Source: an uncultured Acidobacteriota bacterium | Lineage (GTDB): Bacteria; Acidobacteriota; Thermoanaerobaculia; Multivoradales; UBA5704 | Direction of reading: 5' to 3' | Length of the DNA: 64,000 nucleotides | Assembly: GCA_963718645.1 (NCBI GenBank) | Contig: OY970373.1 | Location: 1,771,730-1,835,729 of the forward strand | In this document: piece after piece, positions 56,337 through 64,000 of the stretch | How the letters are laid out: the number at the start of each line of letters is the position of its first letter | Numbering within the stretch: the first letter of the stretch is position 1 | The notes under the pieces: generated by a model | Databases searched by the model: none | What the model saw: the letters and a program-made list of their open reading frames with translations, nothing else | What the model was told of the DNA's origin: nothing | Made by a program: the position numbers and the translations under genes

Positions 56337-58730
56337 GTGCGGAAACTGGATCGCTATCTGATCACGGAAATCCTCGGTCCTCTCGGGCTGGGGTTCCTGG
56401 TCTATACGTTCATCCTCCTCATCCGGTTCCTCTTTCAGTCGGCGGAGATGATCATCCGCCGCGGTCTGCCGGTCTCGATCGTCGGCAAGCTGCTGGCGCT
56501 GACCCTGCCGAACATCGTGGTGCTGACCCTGCCGATGTCGCTCCTGTTCGGCACCCTGATCGCCGTCGGCCGGCTCTCCTCGGACAGCGAGCTGATCGCC
56601 GTGCGCGCCTCGGGGATCAGCCTGCTGACCCTCTACCGGCCTATCCTGCTGCTCTCCGGCGCGCTGACGGTCGCCAACGCGCTGTTGATGATCTACGTCC
56701 TCCCCTGGGGGAACCACGAGCTCCAGGTGCTGCGGCTCGAGATCACCACCCAGACCGTGTCGCAGCAGGTCCAGCCGCGGGTGTTCTACGAAGAGTGGGA
56801 GGGGAAGGTCGTCTACGTCTTCGAGGTCCCGGAAGGAGGCAAGCGCTGGAAGGGGGTCTTCCTCGCCGAGGCGGTCCCGTCGAGCGAGAAGAACCAGATC
56901 ACCACCGCCGACTGGGGAGAGGTGCTGATCGACCAGGCGGGCGAACGGGTGGTGCTGCGGCTCTACAACGCCATCCAGCACAAGGTGGACCTCAACGCTC
57001 CCGACCGCTATGAGATCAGCCGCCACCGGCGGCTCGACCTCGTCCTGGACGACCAGTTCACCACCGAGCAGAAGGCCAAGCTCTCGGCCTCCAAGGGGAT
57101 CCGCGAGCTCACGCTCTCCGAGCTGAGCGATCTGGCGCGCGACCCGACGACCGACTCCGAGCAGCGCAACCTGGCACGGGTGGAGATCCACAAGAAGTTC
57201 TCGATCCCCGCCGCCTGCCTGGTGTTCGGCCTGTTCGCGCTGCCACTGGGGATCAACAACCGCCGGGGCGGCAAGGCGTCGGGCTTCGCGCTGTCGATCG
57301 GCATCCTGATCCTCTACTACATCCTGCTCAACAACGGCGAGGAGGCGGCGCGCTTCGGCCGCGTATCCCCCTGGCTGGCGATGTGGTTCCCCAACATCCT
57401 GCTGGCCAGCTTCGGCATCTTCCTGCTGATCCGCCGCAACCGGGACAAGAGCCTGCTGCTGACCCGCCTCGACCGCTGGGTCCGCGAGGATCTCTGGGGG
57501 GGCATCCTGGTGCTCAAGGGGATCACTCGCCAGCGGCGCCGCCAGCACAAGGAGCAGCGCCAGCTCCGCGCCGCGGAGGCCCCGAAGAAGAAGGAGCCCC
57601 GGCTCCCCCGCCTGGTCCTCCTCCTCCCCCGCCCGCGGATCGTCTTTCCGAACCTCATCGACCGCTACGTGACGAAGCTGTTCGCCTGGGTGTTCCTGCT
57701 GGTCGTGCTGTCCGGGGTGGCACTGTTCATCATCTTCGACCTGTCGGAGAACTTCGACGACATCCTGAAGAACAAGGTCGGCAGCGGCGTGGTGCTCAAC
57801 TACTACAAGTACCTGTCGCTCCAGATGTTCTACGACATCGCTCCGATCGTCATCCTGGTGGCGACCCTGCTCACCTTCAGCCTGCTGGCGCGGACGAACG
57901 AGATCACCGCCTGTAAGTCGCTGGGGATGAGCCTCTACCGGCTCTCGCTGCCGGCGGTGGTCTCGGCGCTGCTGGTGACCTTCTTCTGCGGCTATCTGGA
58001 GTCGTCGGTCCTGCCGGCGTCGAACGAGAAGGTCGCGAAGCTCAAGGACCGGATGCACGGCAAGCAGACCGCCCGCACCTACCGCCGCGCCGACCGCCAG
58101 TGGCTGTTCGGCCAGGGGCGGTACATCTATAACTACGTCCACTACGACCCGCAGCAGGCGGGCCTCCAGCGCTTGCAGGTCTTCGACTTCGACGACCAGC
58201 ACCGGCTCACCCGCCGGCTGTTCACGGAGAACGCCCACTACATCGGCGATGCCTGGGTGTTCTCCAATGGCTGGGCCCGCTCGTTCAAGGCGGTGGACGT
58301 CACCAGCTACAACCGGTTCAAGGAGCCGAAGATCGTCCGCTATCCGGAGACCCCCTCCTATTTCGACTCGGAGATCCGTCCCCCGGAACAGATGCGCTAC
58401 GGCGAGCTGAAGGACTACATCGAGGAGCTGAAGGAGAGCGGCCAGTCCGTCCCCGAGCTGCAGGTGCGGCTGGAGGACAAGATCGCGCTGCCGGTCGCTT
58501 CGTTGATCATGTCGCTGGTCGCGCTCCCCTTCGCCTTCCGCCTCGGCCGGCAGGGAGCGCTCTATGGGATCGGCGTCTCGCTGGTGCTCGGGATCGCCTT
58601 CATGGCGATCTACGCCTTCTTCACCAAGATGGGCGAAGCCGGGGCGCTGCCGCCGCAGGTCGCGGTGTGGAGCCCGGCGGCGGTCTTCGCGCTGCTCTCG
58701 GGCTACCTCTTCCTGGGTGTGCGGACCTGA
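56337..58730 (+). CDS. Fused LptF-LptG LPS export permease
   Basis: Two permease halves in one ORF (LDRYL...SDSELIA; LIDRYV...RTNEITA). Confidence 0.9.
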   Translation: MRKLDRYLITEILGPLGLGFLVYTFILLIRFLFQSAEMIIRRGLPVSIVGKLLALTLPNIVVLTLPMSLLFGTLIAVGRLSSDSELIAVRASGISLLTLYRPILLLSGALTVANALLMIYVLPWGNHELQVLRLEITTQTVSQQVQPRVFYEEWEGKVVYVFEVPEGGKRWKGVFLAEAVPSSEKNQITTADWGEVLIDQAGERVVLRLYNAIQHKVDLNAPDRYEISRHRRLDLVLDDQFTTEQKAKLSASKGIRELTLSELSDLARDPTTDSEQRNLARVEIHKKFSIPAACLVFGLFALPLGINNRRGGKASGFALSIGILILYYILLNNGEEAARFGRVSPWLAMWFPNILLASFGIFLLIRRNRDKSLLLTRLDRWVREDLWGGILVLKGITRQRRRQHKEQRQLRAAEAPKKKEPRLPRLVLLLPRPRIVFPNLIDRYVTKLFAWVFLLVVLSGVALFIIFDLSENFDDILKNKVGSGVVLNYYKYLSLQMFYDIAPIVILVATLLTFSLLARTNEITACKSLGMSLYRLSLPAVVSALLVTFFCGYLESSVLPASNEKVAKLKDRMHGKQTARTYRRADRQWLFGQGRYIYNYVHYDPQQAGLQRLQVFDFDDQHRLTRRLFTENAHYIGDAWVFSNGWARSFKAVDVTSYNRFKEPKIVRYPETPSYFDSEIRPPEQMRYGELKDYIEELKESGQSVPELQVRLEDKIALPVASLIMSLVALPFAFRLGRQGALYGIGVSLVLGIAFMAIYAFFTKMGEAGALPPQVAVWSPAAVFALLSGYLFLGVRT

Positions 58731-58762
58731 CGGCGTAGGTCTTCCCTTCCCGCCAGGCGAGG

Positions 58763-60139
58763 TCAGGAAGGCTTGGCGGGGAGATCGGGATGCTTGCGCG
58801 TACGCTTGAGGAGGCCCGAGACCTCACGGACGAGATCGAGGCCCGCCTGGTTCATGCGGGCGGCGTTGGAGAAGACCAGGAGCGCCGCGATCGCCTCACG
58901 ATGGGTGTTGTAGGACTGGAAGGTCGCCAGGGTCTCCTCGGCGACACGGCTGACGTCGGCCGGCCTCCCTTGCAGGATGTAGACGCCGGCGAGGTCGAGG
59001 GCGGCGAGGGCGGCGTCGTAGTCGAGCCCGAGGTCGCGGAAGGAGTCCCGGACCTCGCGGAAGGCCGCCTCCGCCTGGTCGATCCGCTTCAGTCCGAACG
59101 CCACGACCCCCTCCAGCCAGCGCAGCTTGAGGAGGTTCATGCGGTCGCCGGCCTGAAGATAGAGCGGCCGCGTGTGGTAGAGCAGCGCGAACGCCTCGCG
59201 CACCCGGCCCGCTTCGTTGAGGGCGTTGATCAGGTTATGGCGGGCGGCGAGAAAGAGGCGCGGATCGGCCTGCGGATCGATGAGGTCGAGGGCGCGCCGC
59301 AGCAGCTTCATCTCCCCCTCGCCGTCGCCCGCTTCGCCGCAGATCAGCGCCTTCTGCAGCAGCGTGCGGCCGAGCAGGCTCCACTGCCCCAGCTTCTTGT
59401 AGATCGCGGCGGCCCGGTCCAGGATCTGCGCGGCCTCCCCGAACCGCTGCTGCTCCTTGCGCCAGGAGGCCAGGAGCGAGAGCACCTTGGCTTTTTCGAT
59501 CAGGGTGACGGGCCCCTCGTTCAGCAGCGCCTCGGCCTTGTCGAAAGCGGTCTCGGCGCTGGCGAGGTCGACGTTGATCCGGAAGGCGTTGCCGAGATGA
59601 GCCCAGGCCCGGGTCCTCAGCCCCGCGAGCCCCTCGTCGCCACCGCACTCCCCCACCGTCAACTGATCGGCGGCGAGCACCGCCAGCCGGCCGATCTCGA
59701 TCGCGCGGCGCGGATCCTCGAAGCAGGCTTCGGAGCTCCCCTCGATCAGGCGCTCGCAGAGCATCCGGTTGCGGAAGCGCTGGCTGTTGGCCAGCAGCAG
59801 GTGCCGGCGCTCGGCTGGGCACTGCAGCAGCTCCTCGTAGAGCCGGCGGCCGACCGACCGCTGCGCGGCCAGTTGGGAGCCGGTGACCAGGATCCGCTCG
59901 AAGACCCGATCCAGGACGACGTCGTAGCCGTCCCGGAGGGCGTCGTTCGCGGTCTCGCCGGCGGCGAAATCCTGCGGTCCTTCGAAGGCCTCGACGGGCT
60001 CCCAGAGGGTCTCCGTCACGTCCTGGCAGCGCGGACAGCCGGCCAGCAGATGGCGCGCGATCTCGCGCATCTCCGACGAGCCGAGCCGCCCGAGCACGAA
60101 CTGCTCGAGCGCGTCGGGCTTCGGATGGCGCGGGCTCAT
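58763..60139 (-). CDS. Zinc anti-sigma (ZAS-like) N-domain fused to TPR-like solenoid (copy 2)
   Basis: HPKPDALEQF...HLLAGCPRC; TPR-like helices; LRWLEG, YDAALAALDLA, HREAIAAL; ATGA overlap with upstream sigma. Confidence 0.8.
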   Translation of the reverse strand: MSPRHPKPDALEQFVLGRLGSSEMREIARHLLAGCPRCQDVTETLWEPVEAFEGPQDFAAGETANDALRDGYDVVLDRVFERILVTGSQLAAQRSVGRRLYEELLQCPAERRHLLLANSQRFRNRMLCERLIEGSSEACFEDPRRAIEIGRLAVLAADQLTVGECGGDEGLAGLRTRAWAHLGNAFRINVDLASAETAFDKAEALLNEGPVTLIEKAKVLSLLASWRKEQQRFGEAAQILDRAAAIYKKLGQWSLLGRTLLQKALICGEAGDGEGEMKLLRRALDLIDPQADPRLFLAARHNLINALNEAGRVREAFALLYHTRPLYLQAGDRMNLLKLRWLEGVVAFGLKRIDQAEAAFREVRDSFRDLGLDYDAALAALDLAGVYILQGRPADVSRVAEETLATFQSYNTHREAIAALLVFSNAARMNQAGLDLVREVSGLLKRTRKHPDLPAKPS

Positions 60140-60666
60140 CCCGCCTTCCTCCGACAGACCCCGGCGCCGATCAGTTGGCGCGTCAGGGCGGCGAGACATC
60201 GGGTCGTGACCTTGCTGATGCTGGCCGGGCTGTAGCCCAGCCGCTCCGCCAGCTCCGGCGGATCGTAGCCCTGGCGATACCGCAACCAGAGCAGCGACCG
60301 GCAGCGCTCCGGAAGCCGCTCGAGGGCCAGCGTCAGATCGCGGTGGCGATCGTCGCCCTCCTGGGCGGGCGCGACGGGATCCGCCATCACCTCGAGCACC
60401 GTGGCATCGACGGAGTCGTAGAGCTTGCGGCGCTGCTCCCGCCAGTAGAGCAGACACTTGTTGCGAAGGGTGCCCAGCAGCCACGCTTCCTCGTCGCGGA
60501 TCGCCTCGCGGTGGTAGATCAGCGCCAGCAGCGCCTGCTGCAGGATGTCTTCTGTGTCCTGGGGCGGAATTCGGAAGTGGGCGAACAGGGACTTCAGACG
60601 CGGTCGGACCTGCCTGAGAAAACCCTCAAGCGACGACTCGACTTGAGGGTGATCCAGGGCACTCAT
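60136..60666 (-). CDS. ECF sigma factor (copy 3)
   Basis: DTEDILQ, AWLLG; sigma4 LWLRYRQGY...ELAERLG...SISKVTTRCLAAL. Confidence 0.85.
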   Translation of the reverse strand: MSALDHPQVESSLEGFLRQVRPRLKSLFAHFRIPPQDTEDILQQALLALIYHREAIRDEEAWLLGTLRNKCLLYWREQRRKLYDSVDATVLEVMADPVAPAQEGDDRHRDLTLALERLPERCRSLLWLRYRQGYDPPELAERLGYSPASISKVTTRCLAALTRQLIGAGVCRRKAG

Positions 60667-60799
60667 CGTCTTGGTTGAAGGCTCTTCCAAACTTCACGAT
60701 ACAATAACACTGTCCTGGATCGTTGTCCAGCCGCCCCTTGTGCCGGGGCGCGGCGGGCATCGAGCCGCCGCATGCATCCCGCGCCGCGAACCTTCGAGG

Positions 60800-61006
60800 T
60801 CAGTGACCGCCGTTGGGATCGATCCGGATCCCCGATTTCCACAGCACGTCGATCACCGTGCTCCTGATCCAGCCGGCGATTCCCGGGGCCGCGGGGTGGA
60901 TGTGCGGACGCACTCTGGGGGCGGCGCCGGCCGCGCTCACCGTCAGCAGCGAGAGGGCGAGCACCAGGACGGAAGCAGCGGCGCGACGAGCTTTGAGCTG
61001 GACCAT
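60800..61006 (-). CDS. Small secreted peptide ending GIRIDPNGGH
   Basis: RBS GAAAGGAAAC; signal peptide MVQLKARRAAASVLVLALSLLTVSAAGA; 68 aa. Confidence 0.7.
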   Translation of the reverse strand: MVQLKARRAAASVLVLALSLLTVSAAGAAPRVRPHIHPAAPGIAGWIRSTVIDVLWKSGIRIDPNGGH

Positions 61007-61173
61007 GGAAGTTTCCTTTCGAAACGCCTGCATGGCGGAAATCGCCACCGGCGCGAGCGAGAGCTCTCCAGAGTAGTGTTACCGCAGGACCCTCGGAAAG
61101 GACAGCGAGCAGCGTTTCGCCTTCACGACACCGCCGGGCGCCGGAAGCGGGATCTCGGGAGTGGGACGGGAGC

Positions 61174-61704
61174 TTAGGGCTCGGGCGGGTGGAAGCCGGC
61201 GCCGACGAGCTGTTCGGTCAGCGCCGCCAGGCAGCGGCGGGTCACCTTGCGGATGCTCGACTTGCAGTAGCCCATCCGCTCCGCGGTCTCGGCGGTGTTG
61301 CAGCCGAAGCCGTAGCGGAGGCGGAGCAGGGAGCGGCAGCGGTCCGGCAGGTTGGAGAGCATCGAGTCGAGGTCGTGGCGCAGATCGGCGCTCTCCTGCG
61401 GCGGCGCCTCGACGTCGGCGAGCAGCTCGAGGATGGCGGAATCGACCAGGTCCCAGAGCTTCGCCCGGTGCTTGCGCCAGTAGATGATGCAGCGGTTGGC
61501 GAGGGTGGCCACCAGCCAGGCGTCGTGGTTGCGGATGGTCGCCGCCTTGGAGACCAGGATCAGGAAGGTCTCCTGCAGCAGGTCGTCGGCGTCCTGCGCC
61601 GGGATCCGATAGCGGCTGAGCACCCGCTTGAGCCTCGGCTCGGCCCGCGCGAGGATCTCCTCGAGGGAAGGCTCCGCCAGATCGGGTGGGACCGAAGAGT
61701 TCAT
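61174..61704 (-). CDS. ECF sigma factor (copy 2)
   Basis: DADDLLQETF, AWLVA; LRLRYGFG...ETAERMGY..SSIRKVTRRCLAAL. Confidence 0.85.
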   Translation of the reverse strand: MNSSVPPDLAEPSLEEILARAEPRLKRVLSRYRIPAQDADDLLQETFLILVSKAATIRNHDAWLVATLANRCIIYWRKHRAKLWDLVDSAILELLADVEAPPQESADLRHDLDSMLSNLPDRCRSLLRLRYGFGCNTAETAERMGYCKSSIRKVTRRCLAALTEQLVGAGFHPPEP

Positions 61705-61822
61705 CGCTCGCCTGAGTGTATCCGAGAATTCAGCTTGACAGCCCTCCCCGCGCTCGTCCGGCGGACGGGAGAGATCGTGGAGGGGAGCCCGGCCGGCCTC
61801 CCGCAGGACAGGGAGCTGGCCT

Positions 61823-63223
61823 CTAGCGGGCTTCCCTGGAACGGAAGCTCCCGGTGGCACGGGACTCCTTGAGATAGCCGGTGACATCCCGGATCAATCC
61901 CAATGTGACGCGCTCCATCTCCGCCGCCTTCTGAAAGACGAACAGCGCCGCGATGGCCTCCCGGTGGATGTCCCGCGAGCGGAAGATGGGGAGCATCTCT
62001 TCGGCGAGGCGCCGCATCTCGGGCCCCCGCCCCTGGCGGGCGTAGATGGTGGCCAGATCGAGGGAGAGCAGGGCGGCGTCATAGCCCAGCTCGCGATCGA
62101 TCAGCTCCTTCTGGACGCCGCGCAGGAAGGCCTCGGCCTCCCCGAAATGCCCGAGGGCGCTGGCGATCTTCCCCTCCAGCCAGCGCAGGCGCAGGAGTCC
62201 CATCTGATCGCCGACCTGGTGGTAGAGGGGCCGCGCGTTCTCGAGGAGCCGCAGGGCCTCCGCATACCGTCCCCCCTCGGCGAGAGAGAGAGTGAGGTTG
62301 TGCTGGGCCGCGATGATCAGGCGCGGTTCGGCTGCGGGATCGACCTTCCGCAGCCCTTCGGTCAGATGGCGGATGGCGGCCTCCGGATCGTTCGCGAGCC
62401 CGAGGAGGAAGCCGCGCGTGATCATCGCCTTGCCGCACAGGTGCGAATCGCCGCAGCGGCGGCCGAGGGCCATCACCCGGTCGAGCAGTTGGAAAGCTTC
62501 CCGGAAGCGCTGCTGGTTGCCGCGCAACGAAGCCTTGAGCAGGAGCGCGTGGGCCTTCTCCACCGGATCGCCGGTGCCGCTCTTGAGCGACCGCTCGGCG
62601 CGGGAGAAGCACTTCTCCGCGGCGGCGAAATCGCCCCGGATGCGCAGCGCGTGGCCGAGCGCGGCCGCGGCGCGCGCCCGCAGGTCGTGGACCCGCGGCT
62701 CGCCGTAGACAGCGCCTCCGAGGTGCCCGGCGATCTGGTCGCCGAGGATCGACAGCTCCAGCGCCCGCCCTGGATCCTCGGCCCCCCATTCCCGGGCGGT
62801 CTCCAGCGCCAGGGCGCACAGCTCCCAGGTCCGGTAACGCGGCTCTCCGGCCACCCACTCGCTCCGAAGGTCCACCGGCACGTCCAGCAACTCGCGCAGC
62901 AGCTCCGGAGCCGCCGCCCGCTCCGCCTCCAACGCGGCCTGGCTCGCCTCGACGGTGCTCCAGGAGCCCGCGAAGGCGGCGCCGTAATCGCGGCCATCGC
63001 GGTCATCGCGCGCCGCCCGGCCGCGCGGGGACGCCTTCGCGCTCCCCTCCTCCACCCCTGCCGATGCCGGAGGCAGGAATCCGGCCGTGACCCGGCGGCA
63101 GTCCTCGCAGTCGGTGAGCAGGTGGCGGACGACCTCGCGGTTCCGGCGGCGCTGCAGCCGGCCCCGGCCGAAGCGGGCCAGCAGGGTCGGATGCGGGTGG
63201 TTCTCGGACCCCCGACTATCCAT
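61823..63223 (-). CDS. Zinc anti-sigma (ZAS-like) N-domain fused to TPR-like solenoid (copy 1)
   Basis: HPHPTLLARF...HLLTDCEDC; LRWLEG, YDAALLSLDLA, DIHREAIAAL; 8-nt overlap with upstream sigma. Confidence 0.8.
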   Translation of the reverse strand: MDSRGSENHPHPTLLARFGRGRLQRRRNREVVRHLLTDCEDCRRVTAGFLPPASAGVEEGSAKASPRGRAARDDRDGRDYGAAFAGSWSTVEASQAALEAERAAAPELLRELLDVPVDLRSEWVAGEPRYRTWELCALALETAREWGAEDPGRALELSILGDQIAGHLGGAVYGEPRVHDLRARAAAALGHALRIRGDFAAAEKCFSRAERSLKSGTGDPVEKAHALLLKASLRGNQQRFREAFQLLDRVMALGRRCGDSHLCGKAMITRGFLLGLANDPEAAIRHLTEGLRKVDPAAEPRLIIAAQHNLTLSLAEGGRYAEALRLLENARPLYHQVGDQMGLLRLRWLEGKIASALGHFGEAEAFLRGVQKELIDRELGYDAALLSLDLATIYARQGRGPEMRRLAEEMLPIFRSRDIHREAIAALFVFQKAAEMERVTLGLIRDVTGYLKESRATGSFRSREAR

Positions 63224-63761
63224 CCTGAGGCTCCCCCTGAACCTCCTGATCGAACCCGACCGCGAGGAGCTGCCGGGTGAGAGCCGCGAGACAGCGATTG
63301 GTGACTTTCCGGATGCTGGAGGTGCGATAGCCCATCTGCTCGGCGACCTCGGTGGGGCCGTAGCCGAGCCCGTAGCGCAGCTTGAGGAGGGAGCGGCAGC
63401 GGATCGACAGGCGCGCCATCACCCGGTTGAGGTCCCAGGTGAGCTCGGTCTTCTCCTGGTCCGGCGCCTGCGGCACCGCGAGCAGGTCGAGGATCGCCGT
63501 GTCGACCGCCTCGCAGAGGCTGCCGCGGCGCTTGCGCCAGTACATGATGCACTTCTTCTTGACCGTCCCGATCAGCCAGCTCTCGGGGCTGCGGATCTTG
63601 TCCCACTTGTAGAGGAGCGTGAGCTGGGCATCCTGCAGGATGTCCTCAGCGTCTTCGGGAGGGATCTCGAAATTCCGCAGCACGCGCTCCAGGCGGGGCC
63701 TGGAGGTCTTCAGCAGAATGTTGAGCGATTCCCGGAGTTCAGGATGGTCAAGAGTTGCCAT
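63216..63761 (-). CDS. ECF sigma factor (copy 1)
   Basis: DAEDILQDA, SWLIG; LKLRYGLGY...EVAEQMGY..SSIRKVTNRCLAAL. Confidence 0.85.
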   Translation of the reverse strand: MATLDHPELRESLNILLKTSRPRLERVLRNFEIPPEDAEDILQDAQLTLLYKWDKIRSPESWLIGTVKKKCIMYWRKRRGSLCEAVDTAILDLLAVPQAPDQEKTELTWDLNRVMARLSIRCRSLLKLRYGLGYGPTEVAEQMGYRTSSIRKVTNRCLAALTRQLLAVGFDQEVQGEPQDG

Positions 63762-63870
63762 AGAAACGATTGAGTGCCGTCGACAGCCGCTAGGCTAGCA
63801 CCCCGTTCGCCCCCTGTCCATAGCGAAGGAAAGATCTCTTCCAGGGCTCCGGAGCCTCCGGTTCGGCCCT

Positions 63871-63914
63871 GAAACGAAACGGGAAACGAAACGGCGGCCC
63901 CGGGGAGCCGCCGT
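63871..63914 (-). terminator. Probable Rho-independent terminator of an upstream minus-strand gene
   Basis: Minus strand ACGGCGGCTCC-CC-GGGGCCGCCGT followed by TTCGTTTC; a frame ending ...VPVAVTV* enters at 63976-64000. Confidence 0.55.
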
Positions 63915-64000
63915 GACGAACGGGTGACGGAAAGCGGCTCTAAGTGCCGTCTTCCAGGTGCCGGGGTGTCGTCGATCAGACGGTGACCGCCACAGGGACC

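Follow-up and report, generated by a model that had tools for sequence, protein, structure and literature searches.

ECF sigma factors, soluble ZAS-like/TPR proteins and a predicted exported peptide in a conserved gene array of Thermoanaerobaculia: a candidate peptide-sensing anti-sigma system

The zinc-binding anti-sigma (ZAS) factors of extracytoplasmic function (ECF) sigma factors share a canonical motif, H-x3-C-x2-C plus an upstream His or Cys ligand, and differ in their sensor parts: a cupin in ChrR, nothing in RsrA and a membrane anchor in others. DdvA, of the Myxococcus xanthus pair DdvA-DdvS, is presented in the available text of PMC11506125 as an anti-sigma factor combining a zinc-bound three-helix domain with tetratricopeptide repeats (TPRs); it is a single-pass membrane protein of the CHCC type with a periplasmic TPR-CHAT part of about 900 aa, controls a defence island, and regulated proteolysis has been proposed for it. 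TPRs also occur in ECF42, as an extension fused to the C-terminus of the sigma itself, and in ECF267, in its FecR-like anti-sigma factor (Casas-Pastor et al. 2021, PMC7826278). The available text of this ECF reclassification names no soluble ZAS-TPR group, and holds that unrecognised soluble anti-sigma variants probably exist. In RRNPP systems, a cassette is defined as two adjacent genes encoding a receptor and a propeptide (PMC10075063), and some RRNPPA propeptides carry repeated pheromone units (PMC11343458); the available text of PMC10075063 and PMC9765709 treats these systems solely for Bacillota/Firmicutes. In ComRS/XIP of streptococci, a re-imported peptide ultimately turns on the alternative sigma SigX (PMC4497675, available text). 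The locus reported here lies in a 64,000-nucleotide stretch of the genome of an uncultured soil acidobacterium (contig OY970373.1, assembly GCA_963718645.1; this whole stretch is hereafter the window). It combines an RRNPP-like cassette with a putative ZAS/ECF pair, both of known kinds, and our literature search found no description of such a peptide/ZAS-TPR/ECF system.

The locus occupies the minus strand of the window between 58763 and 63761, where six open reading frames (ORFs) follow each other in the order sig1, TPR1, sig2, peptide, sig3, TPR2, all six at the places given in a first-pass annotation of this DNA. The ECF-type sigma factor sig1 (63216-63761, 181 aa) is followed by TPR1 (61823-63223, 466 aa), whose soluble product starts with a ZAS-like HHCC zinc finger and continues into TPRs at the C-terminus. 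A second ECF-type sigma, sig2 (61174-61704, 176 aa counted from its ATG), has no translationally coupled partner. Next comes a propeptide gene of 68 codons (60800-61006), whose product displays a predicted signal peptide, a Trp-rich hydrophobic segment and the C-terminus IRIDPNGGH. The third ECF-type sigma, sig3 (60136-60666), starts at the ATG at 60666, homologous to the sig1 start, the listed ORF start being a TTG at 60690; it precedes TPR2 (58763-60139, 458 aa), the second soluble ZAS-like/TPR protein. As claimed in the annotation, sig1 and sig3 overlap the genes that follow them, by 8 nt for sig1/TPR1 and by ATGA for sig3/TPR2. Starts of the peptide and TPR genes are heuristic, and the scripted gene calls used a crude filter on third-position G+C content (GC3). 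We read sig1-TPR1 and sig3-TPR2 as two putative sigma/anti-sigma modules, accompanied by sig2 as a third, paralogous ECF sigma and by a predicted exported propeptide. That the sigmas and their neighbours form sigma/anti-sigma pairs is likely on the sequence evidence given below, and it is very probable that the peptide and the TPR proteins are functionally connected in one way or another. For the mechanism as a whole, in which TPR1 and TPR2 would be RRNPP-like peptide receptors whose anti-sigma output domain gates ECF sigmas, we judge the balance to be modestly favourable.

The three sigmas match Pfam Sigma70_r2 above its cut-off (42.4 bits for sig1 against 24) as well as NCBIfam TIGR02937 (sigma70-ECF; 58.6, 66.7 and 64.1 bits for sig1, sig2 and sig3, cut-off 42.9). 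Region 4 is above cut-off in sig2 and in sig3 (r4_2 in the latter) and sub-threshold in sig1 (19.1 against 25.7). At 176-181 aa, they conform to the ECF sigmas (group 4), which have regions 2 and 4 only and about 170-200 aa. Their description as close paralogs is borne out, sig2 and sig3 being 49-50% identical to sig1, and the region-4 helix recognizing the -35 element is nearly identical in all three; on this ground common target promoters are proposed for sig1-sig3. None of them reached an NCBIfam subfamily or equivalog model (best TIGR02983, 64.5 against a cut-off of 141.55), and phmmer of sig1 against the PDB gave no match at E<=0.001, the best profile match being SigJ (8.5e-6). No curated subfamily and no solved ECF is thus close to them; membership of a characterised ECF group with another mechanism, which the first-pass annotation had named as refuting its proposal, was not observed in these searches. 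Lacking a partner, sig2 may be under control in trans or serve as an amplifier.

The genome (G000, a single contig of 7.66 Mb called C1 below) encodes three more members of this sigma family, all intact and with 39-56% identity to sig1, at C1:6192468-6192983, 5982993-5983451 and 7272039-7272479, all on the minus strand, without a neighbouring TPR gene and without the promoter motif common to sig1-sig3. At the first of these, a sigma-TPR fusion was considered and rejected, the 614-aa open frame being an upstream read-through. Another paralog, C1:2618186-2618845 (-), has TGGACA-N14-TGTTA upstream and runs out of frame through region 4; it is probably a frameshift or a pseudogene.

TPR1 and TPR2 share 42% identity over 454 aa (E 2e-87) and both contain TPR_12 above cut-off (65.4 and 45.2 bits). 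Neither displays a transmembrane (TM)-like or signal-like segment, the maximal 19-aa Kyte-Doolittle means being 0.93 and 1.20, in agreement with their earlier description as homologous partners without TM helix. Four putative zinc ligands (H9, H34, C39 and C42 in TPR1; H5, H30, C35 and C38 in TPR2) are invariant in 54 full-length and 43 N-terminal aligned sequences, and this includes the upstream His, 25 residues ahead of the motif His. In the window proteins the Cys motif reads H-x4-C-x2-C (HLLTDCEDC and HLLAGCPRC), one residue over the canonical spacing; more distant paralogs and lone homologs show H-x3-C-x2-C. The Pfam zf-HC2 cut-off (22.2) is missed in the window, with 14.4 bits for TPR2 and no match for TPR1, and is passed by the N-terminus of the homolog at locus L041 (26.8 bits). 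When a profile of the 43 N-termini was searched against the PDB, the five best matches were all solved anti-sigma factors: DdvA 8rlz (E 2e-5), ChrR 2q1z and 2z2s (2.4e-4), full-length DdvA 8rot (9e-4) and 3hug_B (0.008). Residues H6, H31, C35 and C38 of ChrR align with the invariant H, H, C and C apart from a one-residue gap. We therefore accept the ZAS homology in spite of the departure from the strict motif, and the N-terminal domain is, as judged from these profiles, a divergent ZAS-type anti-sigma domain. The ZAS assignment made in the first-pass annotation is supported by homology to solved ZAS domains, with two corrections: the H-x4-C-x2-C spacing and the failure of both window proteins to reach the zf-HC2 cut-off.

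Among RRNPP receptors the TPR domain resembles RapF (E 4e-4, 22 bits over 89 residues), which ranks below LGN and kinesin light chain, so that the likeness is only generic. Database homologs of TPR1 are all named hypothetical or TPR proteins, each Atlas neighbour retrieved with a TPR1 ortholog is an unnamed TPR protein from Acidobacteriota, and a scan of viral contigs with the ZAS-TPR alignment found no relative.

Conservation of the array was surveyed with one genome per species, which yielded 49 loci, nearly all of them from Thermoanaerobaculia metagenome-assembled genomes (MAGs). Loci carry the prefix L, and 'array' is used for those having both sig3 and TPR1 (n=41). The genes and their domains, homology, synteny and recurrent linkage can be read directly in these genomes, which are relatives, so that counts across them are of non-independent events. 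The order sig1-TPR1-sig2-gap-sig3-TPR2 recurs in the 41 arrays of other genomes, the array being kept in about 40 Thermoanaerobaculia genomes, with sig2 present in 39 (it is missing from L022 and L026) and with a position between metK (34 loci) and lptFG (28 loci). Identity to the window ranges from 83 to 100% for sig1 (40 loci), 71 to 98% for sig2, 61 to 98% for sig3 and 51 to 92% for TPR1. Gene overlap is also kept, in 37/39 loci for sig1/TPR1 and in 34/36 for sig3/TPR2, with start codons assigned heuristically. Of 151 genomes sampled across the class, six had a sig1 match at E<=1e-50; orthologs at least 81% identical occur only in the window's own family (its own genome and 3/3 others), and matches in two other families are 54-55% identical.

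A third paralog, TPR3, follows TPR2 in 22 loci (among L002-L040, e.g. L004:10492-11781), and its N-terminal domain has lost the Cys ligands. A TPR3 ortholog was not found in the window's genome, where the best match is 43% identical. In the tree, TPR1, TPR2 and TPR3 fall into three clades that branch internally in the same way, as expected under vertical inheritance. TPR3 also goes with the peptide: among loci with enough flanking sequence it is present in 21/25 that bear a peptide and in 1/8 that do not, these loci being kin rather than independent cases.

As for the peptide gene itself, the 68-aa ORF announced in the first-pass annotation as encoding a secreted peptide is present, and is preceded at 6 nt by an AAGGAAA Shine-Dalgarno-like box. 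Its product has a basic n-region, a hydrophobic core at residues 11-29 (19-aa Kyte-Doolittle mean 2.05) and an AGA/AP site, which suggests that the N-terminus is a Sec signal peptide, by prediction. It has no Pfam or NCBIfam match. Orthologs stand in the sig2-sig3 gap of 31/41 arrays by motif count (a profile finds 28), each combining a predicted signal peptide with a basic stretch that varies, a hydrophobic segment rich in Trp and, at the C-terminus, the motif G-x-[RQK]-I-D-[PDG]-[DN]-G. This unit is repeated two or three times in the precursors of L015, L016, L017, L018, L031, L032 and L038. In three further loci, shortened versions of 27-30 aa (L007:5344-5427, L008:8185-8277 and L040:5784-5867) keep the hydrophobic stretch and a VRIDPDG end and are devoid of the basic n-region and the middle part.

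The gap peptide, sig3 and TPR2 thus form a triad in 31/41 arrays. In five arrays (L027, L029, L034, L036 and L039), a second family peptide lies directly upstream of sig1, giving the arrangement pep'-sig1-TPR1. Counting both positions, 33/41 arrays have at least one peptide gene. Outside the gap, the motif pattern of the gap peptides was absent from both strands of the 49 loci, open frames below 200 aa with the motif at most 45 residues from the stop being considered. In ten arrays the sig2-sig3 gap is about 60-140 nt long and contains no ORF (the gap size of L035 is not included). In eight arrays (L020, L025, L028, L030, L033, L035, L044 and L047), the sigmas and TPRs are kept while the fetched locus contains no family peptide. 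Seven of the eight group together in a single clade inside lineages that bear the peptide, with a support of 100 in the TPR1 subtree and of 99 in the TPR2 subtree; their lack of a peptide is therefore a secondary loss.

Two further triads exist in the window's own genome. There, an ORF of 87-96 aa lies between a peptide gene and a ZAS-TPR gene (L060:1760-2023 on the minus strand, L066:786-1076 on the plus strand), and overlaps the start of the latter. Its homology to sigmas is confined to region 2, where it shares 31-37% identity with sig3 and sig1, at pairwise E-values of 2e-8 and 5e-7. A Pfam search of these two ORFs gave no match. They could be degenerate sigmas or sigma-2 decoys.

Linkage of the peptide to TPR genes extends far beyond the array. 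The own genome contains 55 paralogs of the TPR module, and 2.0% of random positions fall within 1 kb of one of them. A profile of 29 locus peptides run over the 151 class genomes had matches at E<=0.01 in 14 genomes and 19 matches in the own genome, 18 of which lie at 118-661 nt from a TPR paralog. In a wider search (hmmsearch of a 44-sequence peptide profile against 95,101 six-frame ORFs of 35-400 aa from the own genome, E<=1e-3), 33 peptides were retrieved, 17 of them outside the profile, and 32/33 lie at 0-664 nt from a TPR paralog; the window peptide itself is 661-664 nt upstream of TPR2, with sig3 between them. In four other genomes, peptide matches fall within 1 kb of a TPR match in 18/23, 11/11, 5/6 and 4/5 cases (38/45 in total), and at 6/6 lone ZAS-TPR loci from other genomes, two of them labelled Holophagales, the gene immediately upstream, in the same orientation, encodes a family peptide. 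Whole-genome searches score part of the first-look candidates, and absence is to be read as 'not found': 0/200 other Acidobacteriota genomes matched the peptide profile at E<=1e-5, with 26 first-look candidates scored per genome. The neighbourhood analysis proposed together with the first-pass annotation thus revealed a linkage of the peptide with TPR and sigma genes that is conserved and has arisen repeatedly in independent settings.

By their N-terminal domains, assigned with our own hidden Markov models (HMMs), the 55 paralogs are of several types. Twelve are of the helix-turn-helix (HTH) type and all twelve adjoin a peptide gene, being arranged as six pairs, each flanking one peptide gene; Pfam HTH_3 (XRE) is above cut-off in 6/6 of those tested. 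The ZAS type has 29 members, with a peptide adjoining 21 of them, upstream on the same strand except for TPR1, whose peptide is downstream, and for one convergent case 1447 nt away. The remaining 14 are unclassified, and eight of them adjoin a peptide. These counts are lower bounds, the peptide C1:7615487-7615765, for example, being outside the ORF length filter. A receptor with an adjoining propeptide, some receptors having an XRE HTH, is the layout of RRNPP quorum sensing. Moreover, similarity between peptides tracks that between the adjoining TPRs (Mantel r 0.43, 41 pairs, with 0/2000 permutations as high).

The genes of the six HTH/TPR pairs encode proteins of about 500 aa, one receptor being divergent from the peptide gene and the other convergent with it (e.g. 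L050, C1:199500-204500, and L051-L054). Four of the six peptides carry Cys-flanked C-x-x-D-P-x-G-x-C units; the idea that such peptides are specific to HTH receptors was rejected, since they are also found beside ZAS-type and unclassified paralogs. Beside some of these pairs, stand-alone ORFs of 67-73 aa encode the HHCC zinc-finger domain without the TPR part (L053:4114-4317 on the plus strand, L054:15-236 on the minus strand). In addition, several own-genome peptide genes are preceded, at about 45-50 nt, by a GC-rich hairpin (or palindrome) whose loop is ATGGN and whose stems vary from copy to copy (e.g. C1:1445173, 6792338, 1682458, 709484, 7026515 and 1064683). Of 120 hairpins of the ATGGN type in the genome, six are at peptide genes against 0.38 expected; a role as RNA element or as operator is conceivable. 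The leader of the window peptide folds no better than shuffles (z -1.5).

These data bear on two rival explanations. According to the first, TPR1 and TPR2 would be zinc anti-sigma factors that, like RsrA and ChrR, sense redox state or electrophiles; the TPR would be a mere scaffold, and the peptide gene an unrelated neighbour or a member of the regulon. The invariance of the four zinc-ligand positions and the homology of the domain to ChrR and DdvA would fit with it, as would the 8/41 arrays without a local peptide gene. It leaves unexplained, however, why 32/33 own-genome peptides stand beside TPR paralogs, why the HTH paralogs, which have no zinc finger, have the same peptide neighbours in 12/12 cases, and why the TPR3 clade has been retained despite the loss of its Cys ligands. 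We consider it very improbable. According to the second, the zinc-finger/TPR proteins would not be anti-sigma factors at all: their genes would overlap sig1 and sig3 for co-expression only, and they would have other targets. Among the 55 paralogs, only TPR1 and TPR2 are within 6 kb of a Sigma70_r2 match (there are 52 such matches in the genome), so that 27/29 ZAS-type paralogs have no sigma gene at that distance, and the window proteins are below the zf-HC2 cut-off. Against this stand the profile homology to solved anti-sigma domains, the overlap with sigma genes kept across about 40 genomes, and the two further cassettes with a sigma region-2 fragment at the same position. This second explanation appears scarcely probable to us.

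The peptide family is large. Its general build comprises a signal peptide, a Trp-rich segment and one to five x[I/M]DPxG units. Searched against 1.84 billion proteins, the 44-sequence profile retrieved 3331 representative clusters at E<=1e-3, of which 690 at E<=1e-10. Among 12 cluster representatives inspected, 11 had the same build, many of them with three to five G-C-x-[IVL]-[DE]-P-x-G-x-C units, whose flanking Cys residues could form disulfide loops. P0204 (1299 aa, with SIDPDGD repeats) is a false positive of the profile. Two curated families, NF047412 and DUF6799, were examined as covering these peptides and rejected, with scores of 17.8 against 24 (1/7 relatives) and of 31.1 against 26.8 (1/7), respectively; NF047412 was not found above its cut-off in the genome.

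Upstream regions of the array contain two different motifs. TGGACA-N14-TG-n-TA is found 35-60 nt ahead of the starts of sig1, sig2 and sig3 in all aligned loci (42 upstream regions). In the window, the conserved promoter-like copy of sig1, TGGACA-N14-TGCTAGCCT, lies at 63792..63820 (-). The copy of sig2 at 61732..61760 (-) is weaker, with CGGACG-N14-TGTCAAGCT in the window and CTGGACAA...TGATAAGC in orthologs, and that of sig3 (TGGACA-17-TATTGT with TG) is at 60701..60729 (-), the sole sigma-70-like site detected by a promoter scan of 58600-64000. In the whole genome, TGGACA-N13-15-TGNTA has only nine sites; one more precedes the frameshifted sigma paralog mentioned above. In its geometry the motif matches sigma-70 promoters that have an extended -10 (TGGACA-17-TAnnnT with TG), and it would suit a housekeeping promoter of this kind and an autoregulated ECF promoter equally well. 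A different conserved motif, TGTCCTTTCC...GCGGTAACACTACTC at 61071..61104 (-), lies upstream of the peptide gene; it was identified in the alignment of 30 sig2-sig3 gaps, and its loose pattern has only four matches in the genome. On inspection or general grounds, sigma-54 promoters for the peptide genes and a calcium loop for DPxG were also considered.

The flanking genes are housekeeping ones. Upstream is metK (assigned by a Pfam match on locus L074), parted from the array by a terminator-like hairpin 3' of metK at 63891..63914 (-); downstream are a fused LptF/LptG permease and a PTPS/QueD-like gene. The permease is encoded by a single 797-aa ORF on the plus strand (56337-58730) with two LptF_LptG matches, and it adjoins the array in 28 loci. 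Since an LptF/LptG gene lies beside the array, the host is a diderm. An Rfam scan of 58700-64000 gave no match near thresholds.

The most serious competitor concerns the role of the peptide. Instead of a returning signal, the peptide could be an output or a reporter: either a secreted product (antimicrobial, adhesive or metal-binding) under control of the adjoining regulator, be it HTH-TPR or sigma plus ZAS-TPR, or a precursor bound by the TPR in the cytoplasm before export, in which case the sigma would report export status and not cell density. A regulator beside its product is a common gene layout, and TPR secretion chaperones are known to bind precursors. The promoter-like motif belonging to the peptide gene alone, the DPxG core conserved across paralogs instead of being private, and the absence of a linked importer or processing gene in a diderm host with LptF_LptG next door all speak for this explanation. 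It is difficult to reconcile with more than 30 cassettes in one genome, each having one peptide per receptor-like TPR protein; the multi-copy core units hardly square with the mere product of a local regulator; peptide and TPR similarities co-vary; and no modification, immunity or export genes were found beside the peptides in the inspected loci. On balance we regard an output role of the peptide as rather unlikely.

In the mechanism that we favour, that of a peptide-sensing anti-sigma switch, the zinc finger probably holds the co-translated sigma and the cytoplasmic TPR solenoid would be the sensor. We infer sigma binding by this domain as well as export, processing and uptake of the peptide and its binding to the TPR. 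The propeptide would be exported via Sec, trimmed to a short piece, or several of them, containing x[I/M]DPxG, and taken up again; the genome has two SBP_bac_5 genes, unlinked to the locus, through which a route of uptake is conceivable. The peptide would then bind a TPR domain, most likely that of TPR2, the next one downstream on the strand, and TPR1 may answer to the window peptide or to another one. Binding would alter the grip of the zinc finger on the sigma, by release or by locking. Sigmas thus freed would act on shared promoters, possibly including those of their own genes.

Several observations weigh against this mechanism. The eight peptide-less arrays imply that the module can do without the peptide or receives it from another source. 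In a diderm, a Sec-exported peptide would reach the periplasm, and the locus, with metK and lptFG as its neighbours, has no linked gene for an exporter, a protease or an importer. The motif of the peptide gene is unlike that of the sigma genes. The zinc finger has the enlarged H-x4-C-x2-C spacing and misses zf-HC2, and with 27/29 ZAS-type paralogs away from sigmas, it may have another partner. The likeness of the TPR domain to RRNPP receptors is that of TPRs in general. RRNPP pheromones are usually private, and the DPxG core is conserved across paralogs. Finally, the Mantel correlation can be explained by co-duplication alone. The switch proposed in the first-pass annotation is therefore retained in part: recurrent linkage, the 12 XRE-HTH paralogs, repeated core units and ZAS profile homology argue for it, and the 8/41 arrays lacking a peptide go the other way.

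At a larger scale, these elements may constitute a hitherto unrecognised network of cell-to-cell peptide signalling in this Thermoanaerobaculia family, with dozens of cassettes per genome and with two outputs, the HTH for direct control of transcription and the ZAS domain for sigma sequestration. Among diderm phyla, such an RRNPP-like system would be a first. Its orphan ZAS-TPR receptors, each with a DPxG peptide of its own, would converge in trans on sig1-sig3 as hub sigmas, which would integrate many peptide channels. We put forward this broader proposal tentatively, as possible rather than expected; sig1 is about as conserved as the neighbouring housekeeping gene metK.

Re-imported peptide pheromones and cytoplasmic TPR receptors are regarded as a hallmark of Bacillota. 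If the mechanism outlined above is true, their range extends to soil Acidobacteriota, which raises the question of the path of a peptide across two membranes and back. A soluble anti-sigma factor with a peptide-binding solenoid as sensor would then also be a new mode of control for ECF sigmas. The peptide family, which is large, is uncurated and uncharacterised. Orthogonal sigma/anti-sigma/peptide triplets would be attractive parts for synthetic biology, and the parts are small enough to be tested in another host, without a culture of the organism itself.

Compared with known systems, the array shares with the RRNPP(A) members of Bacillota and of their phages and plasmids (Rap-Phr, NprR, PlcR-PapR, PrgX, Rgg-SHP and AimR-AimP) a cytoplasmic TPR receptor beside a secreted-propeptide gene, many paralogous cassettes per genome, tandem peptide units and, in one subfamily here, an XRE HTH. 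It differs from them by its diderm host and by the output of the window proteins, which is a zinc anti-sigma domain and not an HTH or the Rap helix bundle. Its peptides share a DPxG core, often Cys-flanked, and common descent of the TPR domains beyond a generic likeness is unsupported by sequence. As in the ZAS/ECF pairs ChrR-sigmaE, RsrA-sigmaR and RslA-SigL, an N-terminal zinc finger aligned to the ChrR ligands is encoded directly after the ECF sigma gene, overlapping it in the present case; on the other hand, the motif is H-x4-C-x2-C, the sensor is a cytoplasmic TPR solenoid of about 370 aa, and the family is mostly uncoupled from sigmas (27/29). DdvA is the best PDB match of the N-terminal profile, yet TPR1 and TPR2 have no TM helix and no CHAT domain, and their ligands are HHCC. 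ECF42 and ECF267 also regulate ECF sigmas via TPRs, whereas the partner here is a separate soluble ZAS-TPR protein. In ComRS, ComR activates transcription of the sigma gene, while the control proposed for the present locus would be post-translational, exerted through an anti-sigma domain fused to the receptor.

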